The notes beneath the pieces were generated by a model that was not told the origin of the DNA, did no database searches, and saw only the letters and a list, made by a program, of their open reading frames with translations. Positions 6,389-60,107 of a stretch of DNA of 64,000 nucleotides are shown here, piece after piece (within the stretch, counting starts at the first letter, position 1; every line of letters starts with the position of its first letter). The position numbers and the translations under genes were made by a program. The stretch lies in assembly GCF_017348835.2 (NCBI RefSeq), contig NZ_CP071375.1; one strand, given 5' to 3'. This DNA is from Escherichia coli. GTDB lineage: Bacteria; Pseudomonadota; Gammaproteobacteria; Enterobacterales; Enterobacteriaceae.

Positions 6389-7267
6389 ATGAGCAAAAAG
6401 CAGAGTTCCACCCCACACGATGCGCTGTTCAAACTCTTTTTACGCCAACCGGACACGGCACGCGATTTTCTTGCGTTTCATTTACCGGCACCCATTCACG
6501 CGCTCTGTGATATGAAAACCCTCAAGCTGGAGTCGAGCAGCTTTATTGATGACGATCTGCGTGAAAGCTATTCCGACGTGCTGTGGTCGGTGAAAACGGA
6601 ACAAGGACCAGGATACATCTATTGTCTGATTGAACATCAAAGCACCTCAAACAAACTGATCGCATTTCGCATGATGCGCTACGCCATTGCCGCAATGCAA
6701 AACCACCTGGATGCCGGACACAAAACGTTGCCGATGGTAGTGCCATTGTTGTTTTATCACGGTATTGAAAGCTCCTATCCCTATTCGCTGTGTTGGCTGG
6801 ATTGTTTCGCCGATCCCAACCTGGCAAGGCAGCTTTATGCCTCTGCATTTCCGCTGATTGATGTCACCGTCATGCCTGATGATGAAATCATGCAGCACCG
6901 ACGCATGGCGCTGCTGGAGTTAATTCAAAAACATATTCGTCAACGCGACCTGATGGGGCTGGTAGAGCAAATGGCCTGCTTATTAAGTAGTGGATACGCT
7001 AATGACAGACAAATCAAAGGGCTGTTTAATTACATCTTGCAAACCGGCGATGCGGTACGTTTTAACGATTTTATCGACGGCGTTGCCGAACGTTCACCGA
7101 AACACAAGGAGAGTTTAATGACTATTGCGGAAAGATTGCGGCAGGAGGGGTTTCAGAAAGGTATACGTGCTATTGCCAAAACCATGCTGGATGCCGGAGT
7201 CCCTCTTGAGGACGTTCTGCGATTTACCGGGCTGTCAGAGGAAGAATTGGCTGCGGCGAACCAGTAG
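6389..7267 (+). CDS. rpnA: Rpn-family recombination-promoting nuclease / transposase-like protein (YhgA)
   Basis: 292-aa ORF at the expected position after feoC; matches recollection of YhgA. Confidence 0.8.
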
Positions 7268-7984: not shown

Positions 7985-9476
<1,492 letters not shown>

Positions 9477-9534
9477 AGCCTCGATGATGGGCGTATTATA
9501 ACCAACTAAAATAGTCAACTATTAGGCCATTACT

Positions 9535-10110
9535 ATGATCCGTATTTCCGATGCTGCACAAGCGCACTTTGCCAAACTGCTGGCAAACCAGGAAGAAGGG
9601 ACACAAATCCGCGTATTTGTGATTAACCCTGGCACGCCTAACGCTGAATGTGGTGTTTCTTATTGTCCGCCGGATGCCGTGGAAGCCACCGACACTGCCC
9701 TGAAATTTGACCTGCTGACCGCGTATGTTGATGAGTTAAGCGCACCATACCTGGAAGATGCAGAGATCGATTTTGTTACCGACCAGTTGGGCTCTCAGCT
9801 AACACTGAAAGCGCCTAACGCCAAAATGCGTAAAGTGGCAGACGATGCACCACTGATGGAGCGCGTGGAGTATATGCTGCAGTCGCAGATCAACCCACAG
9901 CTTGCTGGTCACGGTGGCCGCGTTTCACTGATGGAAATCACCGAAGACGGTTACGCCATTCTGCAATTTGGCGGCGGCTGTAACGGTTGTTCCATGGTCG
10001 ATGTGACGCTGAAAGAAGGGATCGAGAAGCAGCTGCTAAACGAATTCCCGGAGCTGAAAGGTGTGCGCGATCTCACCGAACACCAGCGCGGCGAACACTC
10101 CTACTACTAA
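9535..10110 (+). CDS. nfuA: Fe/S biogenesis protein NfuA
   Basis: 191 aa; C-terminal Nfu domain with CNGCS motif. Confidence 0.9.
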
Positions 10111-10168
<58 letters not shown>

Positions 10169-10294
10169 GTTGAACATGTGCCAGACGTTGGCGCAGCATT
10201 GCTTTGGCAAATCCCTCCCTTCGTTTCCCCGCGATAATATGACCAACCTCTCATAATTTAAATTTACCCCGCTCTGGTGATTCTCAAATGCCAG

Positions 10295-10316
10295 ATGTTA
10301 CCCGTATCATTCACAT
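10295..10316. promoter_or_regulatory. Candidate GntR operator in the gntT promoter
   Basis: atgttacccgtatcattcacat shares the ATGTTACCCGTA half-site with the operator-like element upstream of gntK in this window. Confidence 0.4.
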
Positions 10317-10470
10317 GGGTACCAAACATACTCCTGACATCTGACTACAATAATTAGTTTTAGTGGGTATCAGTCGTGGTGCCGCAATATCTCTGTTCCC
10401 GATTGGGATAATTAGAGTTTGTCGTCAGAAAATTGACGTTACCCATAACAAATGAAAGGCCAGGTAAATC

Positions 10471-11787
10471 ATGCCATTAGTCATTGTTGCTATCGGTGTA
10501 ATCTTGTTGTTGCTCCTGATGATCCGCTTCAAAATGAACGGCTTCATCGCTCTCGTCCTCGTGGCGCTTGCTGTTGGATTAATGCAAGGAATGCCGCTGG
10601 ATAAAGTTATTGGCTCCATCAAAGCCGGTGTCGGCGGGACGCTCGGTAGCCTTGCCCTGATCATGGGTTTTGGCGCAATGCTGGGCAAAATGCTGGCAGA
10701 CTGCGGTGGCGCACAACGTATCGCCACCACGCTGATTGCCAAATTTGGTAAAAAACACATCCAGTGGGCGGTGGTACTGACCGGTTTTACCGTTGGTTTT
10801 GCCCTGTTCTATGAAGTGGGCTTTGTGCTGATGCTGCCGCTGGTGTTTACCATCGCGGCTTCCGCGAATATTCCACTGCTGTATGTTGGTGTACCAATGG
10901 CAGCTGCACTGTCTGTGACCCACGGCTTCCTGCCACCGCATCCGGGCCCGACTGCGATTGCCACCATTTTCAATGCCGACATGGGTAAAACCCTGCTGTA
11001 CGGTACTATTCTGGCAATCCCGACCGTGATTCTCGCCGGTCCGGTTTACGCTCGCGTGTTGAAAGGTATCGATAAGCCAATTCCGGAAGGTCTCTACAGC
11101 GCGAAAACCTTCAGCGAAGAAGAGATGCCGAGCTTTGGCGTCAGCGTCTGGACCTCTCTGGTGCCGGTAGTACTGATGGCGATGCGTGCGATTGCCGAAA
11201 TGATCCTGCCGAAAGGTCACGCTTTCCTGCCGGTAGCGGAGTTCCTCGGTGACCCGGTAATGGCTACGCTGATTGCCGTGCTGATTGCGATGTTCACCTT
11301 TGGTCTAAACCGTGGTCGTTCAATGGATCAGATTAACGACACGCTGGTTTCTTCCATCAAAATCATTGCGATGATGCTGTTGATCATCGGTGGTGGCGGT
11401 GCGTTCAAGCAGGTGCTGGTAGACAGCGGCGTGGACAAATACATTGCTTCCATGATGCACGAAACCAACATTTCTCCGCTGCTGATGGCCTGGTCGATTG
11501 CTGCCGTACTGCGTATCGCGCTGGGTTCCGCAACCGTTGCGGCAATCACTGCGGGTGGTATCGCGGCACCGCTGATTGCAACGACGGGTGTTAGCCCGGA
11601 GCTGATGGTTATTGCGGTTGGTTCCGGTAGTGTGATTTTCTCTCATGTGAACGATCCGGGCTTCTGGCTGTTCAAAGAGTACTTTAACCTGACTATCGGC
11701 GAGACCATCAAATCCTGGTCGATGCTGGAAACCATTATCTCGGTGTGCGGTCTGGTAGGCTGTCTGCTGCTGAATATGGTGATTTGA
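10471..11787 (+). CDS. gntT: High-affinity gluconate transporter
   Basis: 438 aa polytopic GntP-family permease at the expected locus. Confidence 0.92.
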   Translation: MPLVIVAIGVILLLLLMIRFKMNGFIALVLVALAVGLMQGMPLDKVIGSIKAGVGGTLGSLALIMGFGAMLGKMLADCGGAQRIATTLIAKFGKKHIQWAVVLTGFTVGFALFYEVGFVLMLPLVFTIAASANIPLLYVGVPMAAALSVTHGFLPPHPGPTAIATIFNADMGKTLLYGTILAIPTVILAGPVYARVLKGIDKPIPEGLYSAKTFSEEEMPSFGVSVWTSLVPVVLMAMRAIAEMILPKGHAFLPVAEFLGDPVMATLIAVLIAMFTFGLNRGRSMDQINDTLVSSIKIIAMMLLIIGGGGAFKQVLVDSGVDKYIASMMHETNISPLLMAWSIAAVLRIALGSATVAAITAGGIAAPLIATTGVSPELMVIAVGSGSVIFSHVNDPGFWLFKEYFNLTIGETIKSWSMLETIISVCGLVGCLLLNMVI

Positions 11788-42197: not shown

Positions 42198-42202
42198 GGT
42201 TC

Positions 42203-42240
42203 AAACAGGTGCTGCACACAACCAGACGCGGCACCTGTTT
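42203..42240. terminator. Hairpin between convergent yhgN and the DprA-like gene
   Basis: 10-bp arms aaacaggtgc / gcacctgttt with an 18-nt loop, then ttatt. Confidence 0.5.
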
Positions 42241-42242
42241 TA

Positions 42243-43445
42243 TTACCTGAACTGATAATGACCTTCGCCCAATCGGATAACCCTTCCCTCTTCTTCTGCG
42301 CGGTTCAGCCACACACTAATTTGTTCGATGGTTAAACCAGTACAAGACGCCAGCCTTTCAATACTTATCGATTCCTTTGCAAGGATCGCCAGTTCCGCCA
42401 CAAAGAGTTGATAAAAATCGACAGGCGTATACGCGGGCATTACTGCGTAATTTGCGTCATCTTCATGCAGCGAAAACAGTTCTGGTTGAGCGTTACGGAG
42501 TGCTCTGTCATACATCAGCCCAGGAACGTCTGGCAGTCTGATCGTCACATTCTCAGCCTGTTCAGCACTCCATGACGCCCCATTTTCTACTAATCGTGAA
42601 TTGGCTGATTGCATATCCTGATTTGGTTTAACCTGCACAGGCAGCCACTGATGTTTTAATGCCTCCATCGCCCCGGTTATCGTTCCACCGGTCATTCCCG
42701 CACGTACAACCATTGCGCTTTCAGCAAGGCAATAAATATATTTATTTCGCGCCATCGCATTGCCGACGGTGAAACGTACCTCTGGGTAAAACGGCGAAAT
42801 CAACACCAGGTTGCCTGCTATAAGCCCTTCACGCCATTTCACTAACGTACTCGTTTTTAACAAGCTATCAGCTAATACGCCAACGGCAGTTCCCCCGGCC
42901 TCCAGTGCCGACGCCATTGCACATTCATCAATACCTCGCGCACCACCAGAGATAACGCAAATCCCCTGTTGGGCCAGTTTCGCGGCCAGTTGTTGGGTAT
43001 AGCGCAAATCGTCAGTCGGAGCATCTCGCGAGCCAACAATCGCCATACCTTCCGCTTGCAGTAATGCTTTATTCCCGCAGCCAAATAAAACGGGAGGTGC
43101 ATCCGTTCGCAATCGGTTTTTCAAGCGAACGGGATAATCGGCATCTCCGCGGGTTAAGATCCATAAACCGGCGCGTTGCCACTTATCTACCGCCAACGCC
43201 AGACTATGACCGCGCGCCAGCAAGCCAAGAATACGCTCCTGAGAAATACGCGGATCGCTCCAGCCTGTAAGTTTATCTTGCGGTTGCGGCACCAGAAGCT
43301 CGGCGGGACTGATACGTTGGTGCTTCAGCCATAATGCAAACTTCCCCCATTCACTATTACTAAGAGGTTTATACTCACTCGCCGCCGCGCGAGAAAAATC
43401 GCTGGTTAGCAGGAGAGTTGCTTGTGCATTGGCTGAAAGATTCAT
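42243..43445 (-). CDS. DprA/Smf-like (Rossmann/SLOG) protein; candidate antitoxin/partner of the upstream helicase
   Basis: Motif GMAIVGSRDAPTDDLRYTQQLAAKLAQQGICVISGGARGIDECAMASALEAGGTAVGVLADSL is typical of the DprA core; start set at Met overlapping the helicase stop (TGATG); an alternative upstream Met at 43538 would give 431 aa. Confidence 0.75.
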   Translation of the reverse strand: MNLSANAQATLLLTSDFSRAAASEYKPLSNSEWGKFALWLKHQRISPAELLVPQPQDKLTGWSDPRISQERILGLLARGHSLALAVDKWQRAGLWILTRGDADYPVRLKNRLRTDAPPVLFGCGNKALLQAEGMAIVGSRDAPTDDLRYTQQLAAKLAQQGICVISGGARGIDECAMASALEAGGTAVGVLADSLLKTSTLVKWREGLIAGNLVLISPFYPEVRFTVGNAMARNKYIYCLAESAMVVRAGMTGGTITGAMEALKHQWLPVQVKPNQDMQSANSRLVENGASWSAEQAENVTIRLPDVPGLMYDRALRNAQPELFSLHEDDANYAVMPAYTPVDFYQLFVAELAILAKESISIERLASCTGLTIEQISVWLNRAEEEGRVIRLGEGHYQFR

Positions 43446-45541
43446 CAATTTTTTACCGAGGTAGAAGCAAGGGCAAGAGGATAAACCGTCGGGCAACCTG
43501 CCTGGCCTAACAGTGCTGTCAGAACTGTCAGCGTCCATGCAGAATCCACGATATCGTCAACCAGCAACGCCGGACCAGGCATCAAAGGAGGGGTAATCAC
43601 AAACGCCCCGTCGAGATTTTGACACTGGTGGAAACGGTTTTGCTGCATTTTCTGCGGTGGATTGTCCACGACTTTTTCAATGGCATCAATAAAAGGTAAG
43701 CCAAGTTTCGCCGCCAGTCGCCGGGCAAAATCAGGAACCAGGTCGAGGTGCTTTAATGAAGGAACGCAGCATACCCAGGTTGGTTCAGGATGCGGATTCC
43801 AGCGTTGGCGAACCATTTCCGCACATGCCTCCACCAGTTCATCACTGAATCGCCCCGTTTTTTTCTCCTGTGCTACCTGCTTTCCCCACCCGGAATCTCC
43901 CCAACGAGAAAGGATTCGCCCCGTAGATCCTTGTAAACTCGCAGGCAAGTTCCCTTTAAATCCGTATTGCGTAAAAGCCCCAGCTGCCACCTGTTTATTG
44001 AGATTTAATGGCAGGTCAGCGTGTTTAATAAATAAGTTTGCCGCATGGAGTAAGCCGCTATCAATGTCGGGCGACAACAACGGATGCTGAAGACAACTGC
44101 TACATTTACCACAATGTTCGGCACCTGGCTCATCGAGTGCGCGGCGCAGAAATTGCATTTTGCACTCCTTGGTCGTGATATAGCTTTCAACGTCTGCCAG
44201 CTCACTTTTTCTCTGATTCATCAAATGGTTAATTCGTTCATGGTCAGGAGAAAAACTGACAATTGTTCTGCGCCATAATTTCTCGGTATACACCACAGGC
44301 GATGGATTTTCAGCTACCAATAATTTCAGTGCTTTTTCTATTTGCCCGTAACGGAGATTCGTCCGTTGTTCAATGCCTCGTAAGGTAAGACCGTCATTCA
44401 CGCTAAGTACGTTGAGTATTTCATGAATTTGCGCCTCCGCAGGAAAGGCGCTTTCACGGAAGAATTTATGAATAGCACGGTCTTCACTGCCGCAAAGCAG
44501 TATGCCAACAGCAGAATCGATACCGCGACCGGCACGCCCCACCTGTTGGTAGTAACCAACTATCGAACCTGGCATCTGGTAATGAATAACAAACCCCAAA
44601 TCCGGTTTGTCAAAGCCCATTCCCAGCGCCGTTGTCGCAACCAGCACTTTAATTTTATTTGCCAGCAACGCCTGCTCCAGATATTCCCTGGCAGTATTAG
44701 AATCTTCCGCGCCTTCACAAGTCACGCCGCTGTAGTAAGCAAATGCACTGATACCATTTTTCCTTAACCACTCGGCGACAAGTTCGGCATCGCGAGTAGT
44801 CAGGGTATAAACAATTCCCGATTTGGAAAACTGAGGGATAACTGTTGCTAACCATGCCAGACGGGATGACTGTTCACCTAAGACTAAGGCATCAAGCGCC
44901 AAACTTTCGCGAGCCAGCGTTCCACGCTGAATCACAATGTCACCCAATTGCTGACGGATATCCTCAACGACACGGTTATTCGCTGTCGCGGTTGTACCCA
45001 GAACAGGGGTATTCGCAGGTAGTTGGCGCAAAATATCTAATATACGTCGGTAATCCGGGCGAAAATCGTGGCCCCAATCAGAGATGCAGTGCGCCTCGTC
45101 GACCACAAGCAAGCCAATACGATCGGCTATAGGATATAAAACCGTTTCGATAAAGTCCTGGTTTGCCAAACGTTCCGGGGAAACCAGCAAGCAATCGACC
45201 TCACCTTGCAGCAACTTATCGCTAATGCGCTGCCATTCTTCTCTGTTTGTAGAATTCAACGTTTCAGCCGTAATACCTAACCGTTCAGCGGCGGCAACCT
45301 GGTTACGCATCAGGGCAAGCAAAGGAGAGATGATAATTGTCGGGCCAGCGCCGCGATCGCGGAAGATTTTACTGGCGATGAAGTACACAGCACTTTTCCC
45401 CCAGCCAGTGCGTTGGACAACCAGCAGTTTTCGCCGTTGGTTCACCACCGCGTCTATGGCTTCCCATTGCCCTTCCCTGAAAGTAGCGGTGGTATTTCCT
45501 AACATCCGCTGTAAAAGCAATTCAGCTGCGTGCTTTTCCAT
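43445..45541 (-). CDS. RecQ-like SF2 DNA helicase fused to a C-terminal ComF/PRTase-like domain; candidate toxin/effector
   Basis: 698 aa; Walker A TGWGKSAV, DEAH box VVDEAHCISDWGHDFRPDY, motif VI QQVGRAGR, Cys cluster CGKCSSC, C-terminal PRTase motif ALLVDDIVDSAWTL; strong SD aggag upstream of ATG. Confidence 0.8.
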   Translation of the reverse strand: MEKHAAELLLQRMLGNTTATFREGQWEAIDAVVNQRRKLLVVQRTGWGKSAVYFIASKIFRDRGAGPTIIISPLLALMRNQVAAAERLGITAETLNSTNREEWQRISDKLLQGEVDCLLVSPERLANQDFIETVLYPIADRIGLLVVDEAHCISDWGHDFRPDYRRILDILRQLPANTPVLGTTATANNRVVEDIRQQLGDIVIQRGTLARESLALDALVLGEQSSRLAWLATVIPQFSKSGIVYTLTTRDAELVAEWLRKNGISAFAYYSGVTCEGAEDSNTAREYLEQALLANKIKVLVATTALGMGFDKPDLGFVIHYQMPGSIVGYYQQVGRAGRGIDSAVGILLCGSEDRAIHKFFRESAFPAEAQIHEILNVLSVNDGLTLRGIEQRTNLRYGQIEKALKLLVAENPSPVVYTEKLWRRTIVSFSPDHERINHLMNQRKSELADVESYITTKECKMQFLRRALDEPGAEHCGKCSSCLQHPLLSPDIDSGLLHAANLFIKHADLPLNLNKQVAAGAFTQYGFKGNLPASLQGSTGRILSRWGDSGWGKQVAQEKKTGRFSDELVEACAEMVRQRWNPHPEPTWVCCVPSLKHLDLVPDFARRLAAKLGLPFIDAIEKVVDNPPQKMQQNRFHQCQNLDGAFVITPPLMPGPALLVDDIVDSAWTLTVLTALLGQAGCPTVYPLALASTSVKN

Positions 45542-45643
45542 CTTTATCTCCTGCGATCTTTAGGCAGTGATTAGAACGGATTATTTGCAGGTAAATTTGC
45601 GAGAGAGATCAAAAAGATGAAGAGAGGAGAAAAGAGAAATGAA

Positions 45644-45667
45644 TTACTGCGAGCAAGCTCGCAGTAA
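45644..45667 (-). terminator. Hairpin downstream of gntU
   Basis: ttactgcgagc-aa-gctcgcagtaa palindrome followed on the minus strand by a T-rich tract. Confidence 0.5.
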
Positions 45668-45680
45668 TTTGTCGCAGTAA

Positions 45681-49727: not shown

Positions 49728-50765
49728 TTACTTCGCGAGAGTCACGGTGGAGGGAGAGGCTTGCTCAAATCCGCGTTCAAGGATTTCCAGATTGGTAAGA
49801 ACTTCAGATTCCTTGACGTAATTTGGCGCACCGTGGGTGATGGTTTGATACAACGCATCATAAACGCACCCGTAATCGCCCATCTCCGGCTTCATCTCTT
49901 CTCTGACCGTCACGCCCTCGTCATTGACATACTCCAGCACACCGACCGAATCATCCGCTGCGAATCCCGGTTCGCCCGGCATAATATTAGCCTTCAGGCT
50001 GGTTTCCTGCTGGTCGATACCGTATTTAATAAACGAACCTTTCTTACCGTGAACGATAAATTTCGGATAATCGATTTTCACCAGATGGCTGGTTTTGACG
50101 ATGGCTTTCAGGTCACCATAAAACAACTGCGCTTCGAAGGTGTCGTCAGGATTGGCTTTATCACGCAGGCTGCGGATGTCATAAGCGACGTGATCCGGGC
50201 GACCGAACAGAGAAATAATCTGGTCCATCGTATGCACACCAAGGCCATAGAATGCGCCATCCTGCGGCAACCCAGGTTTGGTTTCTGCGACCGGGCGGTA
50301 ATAGTCAAAATGGCTTTCCACTTCAACAATCTCTCCCAGCTTGCCGCTTTCAATCGCTTTTTTCGCCGTCAGGAAGCAGGAATCAAAGCGACGATTCTGA
50401 TACGGCGTGACGGTCAGCCCTTTGCTTTTCGCCAACGCAAACAGCTCCTTCGCCTGGGCAAGCGTCGGGGTGAACGGTTTTTCGACCAGCACATTTTTCC
50501 CGGCTTCCAGCGCGCGTTTCGCGTACTCGAAATGGCTGTCCGCGTGGGTGCAGACAACAACCAGCTTAACATCGGGATCGTTTAGTACTTCGTCGAGATC
50601 GCTGGTGAAATGGATATGGGAATAAATGGGAGCCTGTTCTTCCGGCTTCGCATGGCGACGAAAAATATGCGCGACATGCCAGCTATCCTTGCGGTTAAGT
50701 ACATACGGCAGATGGTAACGGGTGGTGCTTTTGCCGAAGCCAATAAAGGCGCAGTTGATGACCAT
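49728..50765 (-). CDS. yhhX: Gfo/Idh/MocA-family NAD(P)-dependent oxidoreductase YhhX
   Basis: 345 aa; N-terminal Rossmann fold. Confidence 0.88.
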   Translation of the reverse strand: MVINCAFIGFGKSTTRYHLPYVLNRKDSWHVAHIFRRHAKPEEQAPIYSHIHFTSDLDEVLNDPDVKLVVVCTHADSHFEYAKRALEAGKNVLVEKPFTPTLAQAKELFALAKSKGLTVTPYQNRRFDSCFLTAKKAIESGKLGEIVEVESHFDYYRPVAETKPGLPQDGAFYGLGVHTMDQIISLFGRPDHVAYDIRSLRDKANPDDTFEAQLFYGDLKAIVKTSHLVKIDYPKFIVHGKKGSFIKYGIDQQETSLKANIMPGEPGFAADDSVGVLEYVNDEGVTVREEMKPEMGDYGCVYDALYQTITHGAPNYVKESEVLTNLEILERGFEQASPSTVTLAK

Positions 50766-50881
50766 GATTTCGTCCTTTTTAAGGTGGTTATTTACACCTT
50801 AGCGCAAAGCGGACGTGGTTCCTACTGGAGTGCGCATAACGAACACAAGCACTCCCGTGGATAAATTGAGAACGAAAGATC

Positions 50882-50976
50882 AAAAAAAAAGCCAGCACCC
50901 GGCTGGCTAAGTAATACTGGAAGCAATGTGAGCAATGTCGTGCTTTCAGGTTCTCCGCGAGGGTCTTCCTGATCGC
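50882..50976 (-). ncRNA. ryhB: Fur-repressed small RNA RyhB
   Basis: Minus strand reads GCGATCAGGAAGACCCTCGCGGAGAACCTGAAAGCACGACATTGCTCACATTGCTTCCAGTATTACTTAGCCAGCCGGGTGCTGGCTTTTTTTTT, matching RyhB including the terminator hairpin and U-run. Confidence 0.9.
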
Positions 50977-50978
50977 GA

Positions 50979-51012
50979 GACAATAATAATCATTCTCATT
51001 CGCACTTGTCCA
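50979..51012 (-). promoter_or_regulatory. ryhB promoter with overlapping Fur box
   Basis: Minus strand ttggacaagtgcgaatgagaatgattattattgtctc just upstream of the RyhB +1; Fur-box-like gaatgagaatgattattatt. Confidence 0.6.
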
Positions 51013-51098
51013 ACACTTTTTGCAAAAAAATGCATTTGACTCGTATTTGAAAGTCAATGATGTTGAAAGGGACATTTACCCCAAATGAGGACAAAGGA

Positions 51099-51587
51099 AT
51101 GAGTGAGATAGTGATACGCCATGCTGAAACGCGCGATTACGAGGCCATCAGGCAGATTCACGCCCAGCCGGAGGTGTATTGCAACACGCTACAAGTGCCT
51201 CATCCTTCCGATTATATGTGGCAGGAGCGACTCGCCGATCGTCCCGGCATCAAGCAACTCGTCGCCTGTATTGATGGAGACGTCGTGGGCCATCTCACCA
51301 TTGACGTGCAACAGCGCCCACGCCGCAGTCATGTTGCCGATTTTGGTATCTGTGTCGACTCCCGTTGGAAGAATCGCGGCGTCGCCAGCGCCTTTATGCG
51401 AGAGATGATTGAAATGTGCGACAACTGGTTGCGGGTAGATCGTATCGAGCTAACGGTGTTCGTCGATAACGCGCCAGCAATTAAGGTCTATAAAAAATAC
51501 GGCTTTGAAATTGAAGGGACTGGTAAGAAGTACGCATTGCGTAATGGTGAATATGTTGATGCGTATTATATGGCGCGGGTGAAATAA
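51099..51587 (+). CDS. yhhY: GNAT family N-acetyltransferase YhhY
   Basis: Trimmed to MSEIVIRHAETRDYEAI...; 162 aa. Confidence 0.88.
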   Translation: MSEIVIRHAETRDYEAIRQIHAQPEVYCNTLQVPHPSDYMWQERLADRPGIKQLVACIDGDVVGHLTIDVQQRPRRSHVADFGICVDSRWKNRGVASAFMREMIEMCDNWLRVDRIELTVFVDNAPAIKVYKKYGFEIEGTGKKYALRNGEYVDAYYMARVK

Positions 51588-51647
51588 AGAATTTGCAATC
51601 TAAGTTTGCCATTTAAGCCCTCACCTACCGGGAGAGGGCTTAAGATA

Positions 51648-53381
51648 TTAATAACCCGCCGTTAAATCATCCACCGAGCGCGGATCGGATGCGCCGTACA
51701 ACTCACCGTCCGGCCCAACCATAATGCTTTGTGTACTGCCCATCGCCTCTTTCAGCGCCACTTTCTGACCTTTTGCTTCCAGCAGCTTGAGCGTATCCGG
51801 GCTAAACCCTTTTTCGACACGCAGCTCGTCCGGCAACCACTGATGGTGGAAACGCGGCGCATTGGTCGCTTCGGCGACGTTCATGCCATAATCGATGCTA
51901 TTCACCACCATTTGAAGCACTGTAGTGATGATCCGGCTCCCGCCAGGGCTACCGGTGACCAGCCAGGTTTTACCGTCTTTCACCAAAATGGTGGGTGACA
52001 TCGACGACAGCGGGCGTTTATTCGGCCCGACCGCGTTGGCATCACCGCCCACCAGCCCGTAAACGTTCGGTACGCCCGGTTTGGCGGAGAAATCATCCAT
52101 CTGGTTATTAAGCAGAATACCGCTCTCGCCCGCGACAATACCCGTACCGAAGGTGGTGTTCAGCGTATAGGTCACCGCCACGGCGTTACCGTCTTTATCC
52201 ACCACTGAGTAATGGGTAGTTTGATTACTCTCATAAGGCGCAAGCTTGCCAGGGCGAATCTCGCTGGACGGTTTCGCTTTATTGATATCGATTTGCTCGG
52301 CAATAGATTTGGCATAGGCTTTATTGGTCAGCGCCTGCCACGGGACTTTCATAAAATCCGGGTCGCCAAGATATTCCGAGCGGTCAGCGTAGGCATATTT
52401 CTCCGCTTCTGCCATGATCTGCATCGCATCGGCGCTGCCAAAGCCGTATTTCTTCATATCGAAGTTTTCCAGAATATTGAGGATTTGTACGATATGGATC
52501 CCGCCGGAGGATGGCGGTGGCATGGAGTAAACCTGATACCCGCGATAATCGCCGCTTATCGGTGTGCGTTCGACCGCTTTATACGCCGCTAAATCTTCTT
52601 TAGTGATCAGGCCACCGTTTTTCTGCATCTCCTGGGCAATCTGTTCCGCTATCGTGCCTTTGTAGAATTCGTCCGGGCCGTTTTCGGCAATCATCTCCAG
52701 GCTCTTTGCCAGGTTCGCCTGCACCAGCTTGTCGCCCTTTTTCAGCGGCTCGCCCTCTTTCCAGAAGATAGCCTTGCTGTTTTCGTGATTCGGCAGCACT
52801 TCGCTCCCGTAGGTTTTGAGATCGTCAGCCAGCGCGTCGTTAACGATAAAACCATCGCGTGCCAGTTTAAACGCTGGCTGCACCACTTTGTTCAACGGCA
52901 TTGTGCCGTATTTATCCAACGCCAGCGAGAAACCAGCGACCGTACCGGGCGTGCCGGAAGCCAGATGCGAAGTGAGTGATTTTTTGCTGTCCGGGTTACC
53001 CTGATCATCAAGGAACATATCGCGGGTCGCTTTGGCGGGTGCCATTTCGCGGAAATCGATAGCGGTGGTATTGCCATTTTTCGAGCGGATCAGCATAAAA
53101 CCACCACCGCCCAGATTCCCTGCCTGCGGATGCGTTACCGCCAGCGCGTAGCCCACAGCCACGGCGGCATCAACGGCATTCCCGCCCTCCTTGAGGATAT
53201 CCACCCCCACCTGAGTGGCAGTAGCATCTACAGATGCCACCATCCCCTGTTTCGCGCGTACCGGATGGAAGACATCTTCCTCCACGCCGTAAGAAACAGG
53301 AGGCGCAGCGGCGGCGCTAAAACAACTTCCTGAGAGCAGAGCAGCAATGGCCACCCGGCGTAAAAACGTCGGTTTTATCAT
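51648..53381 (-). CDS. ggt: Gamma-glutamyltranspeptidase
   Basis: Trimmed to MIKPTFLRRVAIAALLSGSCFSAAAA (signal peptide); 577 aa; catalytic Thr in ...NQTTHYSVVD... Confidence 0.9.
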   Translation of the reverse strand: MIKPTFLRRVAIAALLSGSCFSAAAAPPVSYGVEEDVFHPVRAKQGMVASVDATATQVGVDILKEGGNAVDAAVAVGYALAVTHPQAGNLGGGGFMLIRSKNGNTTAIDFREMAPAKATRDMFLDDQGNPDSKKSLTSHLASGTPGTVAGFSLALDKYGTMPLNKVVQPAFKLARDGFIVNDALADDLKTYGSEVLPNHENSKAIFWKEGEPLKKGDKLVQANLAKSLEMIAENGPDEFYKGTIAEQIAQEMQKNGGLITKEDLAAYKAVERTPISGDYRGYQVYSMPPPSSGGIHIVQILNILENFDMKKYGFGSADAMQIMAEAEKYAYADRSEYLGDPDFMKVPWQALTNKAYAKSIAEQIDINKAKPSSEIRPGKLAPYESNQTTHYSVVDKDGNAVAVTYTLNTTFGTGIVAGESGILLNNQMDDFSAKPGVPNVYGLVGGDANAVGPNKRPLSSMSPTILVKDGKTWLVTGSPGGSRIITTVLQMVVNSIDYGMNVAEATNAPRFHHQWLPDELRVEKGFSPDTLKLLEAKGQKVALKEAMGSTQSIMVGPDGELYGASDPRSVDDLTAGY

Positions 53382-59030: not shown

Positions 59031-59242
59031 TACGGGTGAGGGAAAATGGGAGAAGGGGCACGGATATCCCGAGAATGCACTGAAAAGAGGCGATTAACGG
59101 CCAGCTAATCGCCAGAACTCCTTACCATGAAGAGCAAAAATGGCAGCAAATTCTGCGTCCAGTTTTGCTGCCCGATGAGAGCTACATTTTTCAATTTTAA
59201 CAAAAGATTGCCGCGACACTGGTCTAACGGCAAAGAAGATTT

Positions 59243-59989
59243 TCATTGCACCACACTCTGCTTCAACCATTCATTGGCGGTCTTAATCCATTCCCGGTGG
59301 TGTTTTCTATAATGAGGTCTTGAGCGTTTAGCCGTATCAACTACAGCAACATACTGCTCGTTGGCTTCACGTAACCGACTCATTTTCGCCAACATTTCCG
59401 CATAGTAAATACGCGCCTGCGGGCCGGGGTAATAAGAAATCAATACTTCAAACTCGCTTTCCGCATCAGCGTATTTTTCTTGTGCGGCTAACGTTCTGGC
59501 AAATAACAAATGCCCGTCTGCCGACTGAAAATCAGGGTTATAACGCATCACATCTTCCAGCGTCTGCTGACAGGCGGCGAACTCCTGAATAGCAAACTGT
59601 GCCTGCGCCAGGCTTAGCATCATTGCCGCTTCATGGGCGAATATCCCGCTTAACGCCTGCTGATAATGGGGAACAGCTTCGTGATAACGCCCCAGGCGCG
59701 CCAGTTCATTAGCCAACGCATAATGGTTTTGATTCGTCTCGGCAATCGCCAGTTCTTCGGTTAATTTGCGCAGGTGGCGCTCAGGGTTGAGTTTGTCCTG
59801 CAGGCGCATCAGCAAAGTATGCCCGTGACGGTCAGCGCCCGTTTCAGGCAGCATCACTATGACGAAATACGCCACGCAGCCAATCACCGGAAAACAGAAA
59901 ATGATAAAAATCCAGTACCGCTCTTGTCCGGTACGGTAAGCGTGAATACAGCAAAGCAGTTCAAGCATGACAACAACGGCATAATGCAT
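59243..59989 (-). CDS. Membrane protein with PLDc_N-like N-terminal hairpin and TPR-like repeats, function unknown
   Basis: 248 aa; N-terminus ...RYWIFIIFCFPVIGCVAYFVIVM...; helical repeat region (ALANELARLGRYHEAVPHYQQAL...); not expected between ugpB and livF from my recollection of K-12. Confidence 0.55.
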   Translation of the reverse strand: MHYAVVVMLELLCCIHAYRTGQERYWIFIIFCFPVIGCVAYFVIVMLPETGADRHGHTLLMRLQDKLNPERHLRKLTEELAIAETNQNHYALANELARLGRYHEAVPHYQQALSGIFAHEAAMMLSLAQAQFAIQEFAACQQTLEDVMRYNPDFQSADGHLLFARTLAAQEKYADAESEFEVLISYYPGPQARIYYAEMLAKMSRLREANEQYVAVVDTAKRSRPHYRKHHREWIKTANEWLKQSVVQ

Positions 59990-60107
59990 GGGAGGGAACC
60001 TTTCCGTGGCAAATAAGTGGTCTGGTTTTAATCCTCCCGGTCAGTTGAAACAAGTCTGTATACGGACGAATAACCCGGCAGAACTTAGCTGCCGGGTTAT
60101 CGATAAT

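Follow-up and report, generated by a model that had tools for sequence, protein, structure and literature searches.

The window analysed here is a stretch of 64 kb from Escherichia coli, taken at its full length, in which the core genes yhhY and ggt converge on a short spacer. The following features were assigned at this locus:

51099..51587, + strand: coding sequence of yhhY (GNAT N-acetyltransferase), from the ORF list and the mapped RefSeq annotation of strain F2_81; left border of the variable site.
51588..51647, no strand: convergent intergenic spacer of 60 bp, apparently the allele of the variable site that is unoccupied and of ancestral type.
51613..51643, no strand: stem-loop TTAAGCCCTC-N11-GAGGGCTTAA, with a 10-bp perfect stem and about -21 kcal/mol on either strand.
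51648..53381, - strand: coding sequence of ggt (gamma-glutamyltransferase), from the ORF list and the F2_81 annotation; right border of the variable site.

Both borders follow from the sequence and the ORF list, which place the yhhY stop codon (TAA) at 51585–51587 and the ggt stop codon at 51648–51650 (given on the + strand). The chromosome of E. coli F2_81, isolated from a pig in Australia, matches a segment of 1.3 kb across the junction (51000–52300) with 100% identity, and the RefSeq annotation of that strain yields matching yhhY and ggt borders. The gap of 60 bp proposed by an earlier reading of the sequence alone (the sequence-only reading) is therefore exact by sequence, ORF list and F2_81 annotation. 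The spacer reads AGAATTTGCAATCTAAGTTTGCCATTTAAGCCCTCACCTACCGGGAGAGGGCTTAAGATA and is made up of an AT-rich stretch of about 25 nt and, after it, the conserved stem-loop. In an Rfam scan of 50700–51800 at E <= 1 the spacer gave no match, and significance was reached by the RyhB sRNA alone (RF00057, 83 bits; 50883–50947 on the minus strand), which is located between yhhX and yhhY as in K-12 and followed by a canonical terminator at 50908–50890; a PrrF overlap (E = 0.58) was far below the cutoff.

The stem-loop at 51613–51643 folds more stably than shuffled sequences (z = -3.25 on the plus and -2.67 on the minus strand), and a repeat search found it to be the only GCCCTC...GAGGGC palindrome within the 64-kb window. 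Its position is conserved across the Escherichia spacers compared, and its stem varies in sequence between species with the pairing kept, for example TTAAG/CTTAA in the window, which E. whittamii has as TTCAG/CTGAA. The stem-loop of E. albertii (compared over 6457–6518 of its locus) is the reverse complement of window positions 51613–51643 (AAGCCCTCTCCCGGTAGGCGAGAGGGCTT versus the reverse complement AAGCCCTCTCCCGGTAGGTGAGGGCTT) and its stem is 2 bp longer; judged from this comparison, the hairpin is flipped in orientation between E. albertii and the window. The element has the GC-rich stem-loop of a Rho-independent terminator, but neither strand carries a U-tract, the tails being GAUAUUAA (plus) and AUGGCAAA (minus), and a terminator consensus scan made no call at these positions. 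The allelic hairpin beside the ggt stop codon of K-12, AGCCCTCTTCCCACGAAGAGGGC, does carry UAUUUUGU on the ggt strand. From its positional conservation, and from that only, we take the stem-loop to be probably a 3'-end structure for the yhhY and/or ggt transcripts.

The corresponding interval of K-12 MG1655 is far longer than that of the window, with 3,454 bp between the yhhY and ggt stop codons, and is annotated in RefSeq as follows:

K-12 MG1655, b3442-b3446: yhhZ, yrhA::IS1E (annotated pseudogene), yrhD and yrhB.

The sequence-only reading had named yhhZ, yrhA, IS1 and yrhB as the genes that K-12 carries here and the window lacks; this list is correct except for the omission of yrhD. In blastn comparisons the homology breaks exactly at 51587 and resumes exactly at 51648, the aligned parts being 97.4% identical towards yhhX-yhhY and 95.2% identical towards ggt, and gene order and orientation are conserved, i.e. 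the flanking core genes are orthologous and collinear between the window and the occupied K-12 locus. No trace of YhhZ, YrhA, YrhD, YrhB or the DUF4225 protein of O157 strains (see below) was detected in the 64-kb window by tblastn (none below E = 0.05). The absence of the K-12 block was thus confirmed by annotation, blastn and tblastn alike. Local alignment of the 60-bp spacer with the K-12 island gave nothing better than a 12-nt chance match, and no cassette remnant. The spacer and the left flank of K-12 also agree in 9 of 10 positions over TGTCATTYAA, a match that was set aside, since chance expectation covers it.

The window and K-12 share the flanking genes, their orientation, the stop-codon borders and a GCCCTC...GAGGGC-type hairpin beside the ggt stop codon, and differ in that the 60 bp of the window stand against 3,454 bp of foreign DNA (33.6% GC) plus IS1 in K-12. 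The two alleles are not related as a spacer with and without an insert. In K-12, the yhhY stop codon is followed by unrelated sequence that includes a different hairpin (GCCCTTTTTC…GAAAAAGGGT), and the sequence before the ggt stop codon is AGCCCTCTTCCCACGAAGAGGGCCGCTAACC; ~30 nt on the left side of the spacer are missing and have been replaced, and only the hairpin allele persists beside ggt. The K-12 junction zones have no direct or inverted repeat of more than 8 nt in common and show no target-site duplication, and the island lacks mobility genes apart from the later IS1. K-12 thus shows neither of the marks of a clean insertion, namely retention of both spacer halves and a target-site duplication. 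The avian pathogenic (APEC) O78:H4 strain E12049 has a 59-bp hybrid spacer in which a window-type left half is joined to a K-12-type hairpin. Because this hybrid shows the right-hand hairpin of K-12 to be an allele of the window hairpin, the K-12 block is best described as a replacement of the spacer left of the hairpin and not as a clean insertion. Accordingly, the term "empty site" used in the sequence-only reading is apt for the unoccupied allele of the window but not for a view of K-12 as spacer plus insert. Residual repeats, proposed as a check of the junction, were limited to the hairpin and chance matches of 8–19 nt in the window, and to 8 nt or less at the K-12 ends. The yhhY gene is itself unusually divergent, that of E12049 (8517–9005 of its locus) having only 84–85% DNA identity to that of the window. 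Enterobacter YhhY proteins, encoded at the same yhhX-ggt position, fall into two classes, with 83–85% and 62–67% protein identity to the query.

The IS1E copy in K-12 yrhA is flanked by its own 9-bp target duplication, GACATTAAA, and its arrival was therefore an event independent of that of the block. We read it as a separate, later and lineage-specific transposition.

A census of 5,426 complete E. coli genomes revealed several alleles at this site: 1) The K-12 block (query without IS1, at least 80% coverage) is present in 3,758 genomes (69%), of which 371, mostly K-12-derived, bear the IS1 copy. 2) The 60-bp spacer (at least 80% coverage) was found in 911 genomes (17%), always between yhhY and ggt. 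3) A 1.86-kb cassette encoding a DUF4225 protein occurs in 343 genomes (6%), those of O157:H7 and relatives (the O157:H7/O55:H7 lineage). 4) Short alleles, comprising yrhB alone (431 bp; strains 042 and 2e) and hybrids, account for about 330 genomes (6%), a number estimated by subtracting the 911 genomes with the spacer from 1,242 near-contiguous junctions and not counted directly; it agrees with the 336 genomes giving partial matches to the K-12 block. With the K-12 type, yrhB alone, the O157 DUF4225 cassette and a hybrid short spacer all at one site, the earlier description of the region as an insertion hotspot is fair. The enteropathogenic strain E2348/69 carries a 60-bp allele of the phylogroup-B2 type that is alike in length and hairpin and 97% identical to that of the window. 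From this and the other Escherichia spacers of the 60-bp type the window differs by point substitutions only, apart from the reversed stem-loop of E. albertii.

Two further observations were made on the sequences flanking these alleles. Where the Ggt signal peptide ends (window 53300–53320, codons ~25–30), an indel tracks the intergenic state in the four strains compared, with AAPPVSYG in the window and E2348/69, AAPPAPPVSYG in K-12 and AAPPAPSPVSYG in EDL933, which suggests that ggt haplotypes may travel with the cassette alleles, at least in these four strains. In the nominally complete genome of E. coli HS-02, about 350 bp of extremely GC-rich, low-complexity sequence (8648–9000 of its locus) replaces the yhhY 3' end and the left part of the spacer, most likely through an error of assembly or polishing.

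Both cassettes are considered foreign because their GC contents (33.6% for K-12 and 31.9% for O157) are well below the 52.9% of the flanks. In the K-12 cassette, the N-terminus of YhhZ matches the Pfam family T6SS_HCP (E = 1.6e-11), in keeping with its earlier designation as Hcp-like, and residues 322–343 give an HNH match of 17.4 bits, below the Pfam cutoff of 21.4. YrhB matches Imm35 (E = 4e-23). YrhA and YrhD have no Pfam match, and an immunity role for YrhA is thus without Pfam support. The protein encoded in the O157 cassette matches DUF4225 (E = 1.6e-36). Proteins with Hcp fused to an HNH-DNase make up the T6SS effector class Hcp-ET1 (Ma et al. 2017, as reviewed in PMC6730261), and experiments have shown that DUF4225 is a T6SS toxin domain with antibacterial activity (PMC9765294). 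The K-12 cassette is like the orphan T6SS islands of the Hcp-ET class in that YhhZ combines Hcp with an HNH-like C-terminus and YrhB belongs to Imm35, and the O157 cassette is like the DUF4225 effectors (PMC9765294) in encoding a DUF4225 protein. On this domain content, the cassettes of the site look like orphan T6SS toxin/immunity modules, and YhhZ may be equivalent to Hcp-ET1, to the extent that domain architecture, the only basis of this assignment, can tell. The window itself differs from orphan T6SS effector/immunity islands in representing the unoccupied state and is not a member of the class. No recombinase is annotated in the intervals of K-12, O157, 042 or 2e, which sets them apart from integrase islands and integrons.

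The state of the site outside E. coli was surveyed in one genome per GTDB species with YhhY as the query, which returned 41 loci; in the 3 most distant of these, no Ggt match lies in the neighbourhood. Orthologous yhhY-ggt spacers of 59–70 bp occur in E. albertii, E. whittamii, Escherichia sp. E1V33 and the representative E69. Spacers of 34–122 bp are present in 30 of the 34 other Enterobacteriaceae representatives, with ggt convergent to yhhY in genera including Citrobacter, Enterobacter, Klebsiella, Lelliottia, Pluralibacter and Huaxiibacter, and also in a fifth representative, labelled E. coli SCPM-O-B-8794. The remaining four are wider or damaged: the gap widens to 231, 369 and 2,859 bp in three outgroups, where it encodes no relative of the E. 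coli cassette proteins, and the locus of Leclercia is damaged. YhhZ, YrhA, YrhB and the DUF4225 protein are encoded at none of the outgroup loci, with the sole exception of contig CABHOW010000200.1, a metagenome-assembled sequence labelled uncultured Flavihumibacter. This contig encodes yhhX-yhhY-yhhZ-yrhA-yrhD at 99–100% protein identity (YhhY compared with that of the window, the island proteins with those of K-12) and looks like an E. coli contamination of the Flavihumibacter bin.

The spacers of the four Escherichia representatives align end to end with that of the window, including the left half that is missing from K-12, with identities over aligned columns of 95% (E69), 90% (E1V33), 83% (E. 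albertii) and 72% (E. whittamii). Since its left half is orthologous to the spacers of other Escherichia, the 60-bp allele is not the product of a deletion of the K-12-type block. It looks like the ancestral-type allele and not like a derived loss or a deletion scar. We therefore consider it very likely that the window retains an ancestral-type spacer, that in other lineages cassettes replaced the spacer left of the hairpin and were spread by recombination, and that IS1E was added later.

The alternative of a secondary loss, in which an ancestor that carried a cassette of the K-12 or another type deleted it and was left with 60 bp, is improbable. With the block in 69% of complete E. coli genomes, such a loss would be conceivable on frequency alone, and shorter derivatives do exist, such as yrhB alone in 042 and 2e and an O157 cassette with a truncated yrhB-like start at its end. 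Against this, the 60 bp contain no cassette remnant and are collinear with the other Escherichia spacers throughout, and a deletion would be unable to regenerate the ~30 nt that K-12-type alleles lack. Only recombination with an empty allele would restore the spacer, and what it restored would be the ancestral-type allele in any case.

A second alternative, less probable still, is that the site is a dedicated capture site, its hairpin being targeted by site-specific or hairpin-directed, integron-like loading of toxin/immunity cassettes. The K-12 type, yrhB alone and the O157 type all end directly upstream of the ggt-side hairpin allele. Moreover, in the O157:H7 strain TR01 (9006–10864 of its locus) a DUF4225 cassette lies within the 60-bp spacer, starting in the hairpin loop and flanked by a duplication of about 24 bp, TGCCATTTAAGCCCTCAC(C)TACCG. 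Entry of the cassettes at or close to the stem-loop beside the ggt stop codon by a hairpin- or template-switch-dependent route would, if true, explain both the common right border of three unrelated inserts and the TR01 junction, but we regard it as very doubtful. The TR01 junction is unique among the 5,426 genomes, and TR01 was for this reason rejected as general evidence for a true occupied counterpart of the spacer; EDL933 and the other sampled carriers of the cassette have different flanks. The split spacer of TR01 may have come from a rare recombination or from an assembly error. Nor do the cassettes come with an integrase, recombinase or transposase, except for the later IS1. The K-12 junctions share no repeat of more than 8 nt, the left junctions differ among the cassette types, and selection on the ggt 3' end would explain retention of the hairpin equally well.

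That the short junction is an artefact of assembly collapse or misjoining is hardly credible: nothing specific points to it beyond the fact that other assemblies err at this site, as in the GC-rich junk of HS-02, and the junction recurs in 911 independent complete genomes, including E2348/69 and the 100%-identical pig isolate, as well as in other Escherichia species.

Under the preferred reading, that of a retained ancestral-type spacer, positions 51588–51647 would be the original spacer that separates the core genes yhhY and ggt, which converge on it, and the lineage of this strain would either never have received an insert or have regained the empty allele by homologous recombination. The flanks are mosaic, with 93–100% identity to K-12 in 300-bp bins, and these two histories are therefore inseparable from a single window. 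In other E. coli lineages, low-GC foreign cassettes would have displaced the spacer left of the hairpin, one of the K-12 type with YhhZ (Hcp plus an HNH-like region), YrhA, YrhD and YrhB (Imm35), and one of the O157 type with the DUF4225 toxin-domain protein. The cassettes may have entered by illegitimate recombination, and their alleles may then have spread through homologous recombination in the flanking yhhY and ggt regions, with the hairpin presumably retained for its service to the 3' end of ggt and/or yhhY. IS1E would have entered yrhA of K-12 later, in a lineage-specific transposition.

The difference between the window and K-12 is an ordinary accessory-gene polymorphism, already evident in public annotated genomes, and reveals no new kind of element. 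The window documents the cassette-free, ancestral-type allele of a polymorphic core-genome interval, which is of little consequence beyond bookkeeping. The yhhZ-yrhB block of K-12 appears as the derived state, low in GC, T6SS toxin/immunity-like in content, carried by ~69% of complete E. coli genomes and absent from other Escherichia. The site could be used as a lineage marker or as an example of turnover of orphan effector/immunity genes.

Two other variable segments were noticed in the window. About 3.5 kb between yhgN and gntU (42198–45680) is absent from K-12 and APEC O78 and represents another variable site. It contains two ORFs, both on the minus strand, at 42243–43538 (431 aa) and 43445–45541 (698 aa), whose counterparts in O157:H7 TR01 bear the annotations DprA and RecQ-family helicase; in the portion of F2_81 compared, the RecQ helicase alone is seen, truncated by the locus edge. 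The second segment, between ugpB and livF (59067–60107), contains an ORF of 248 aa on the minus strand (59243–59989), in place of which APEC O78 E12049 has a Phd/Doc toxin-antitoxin pair.
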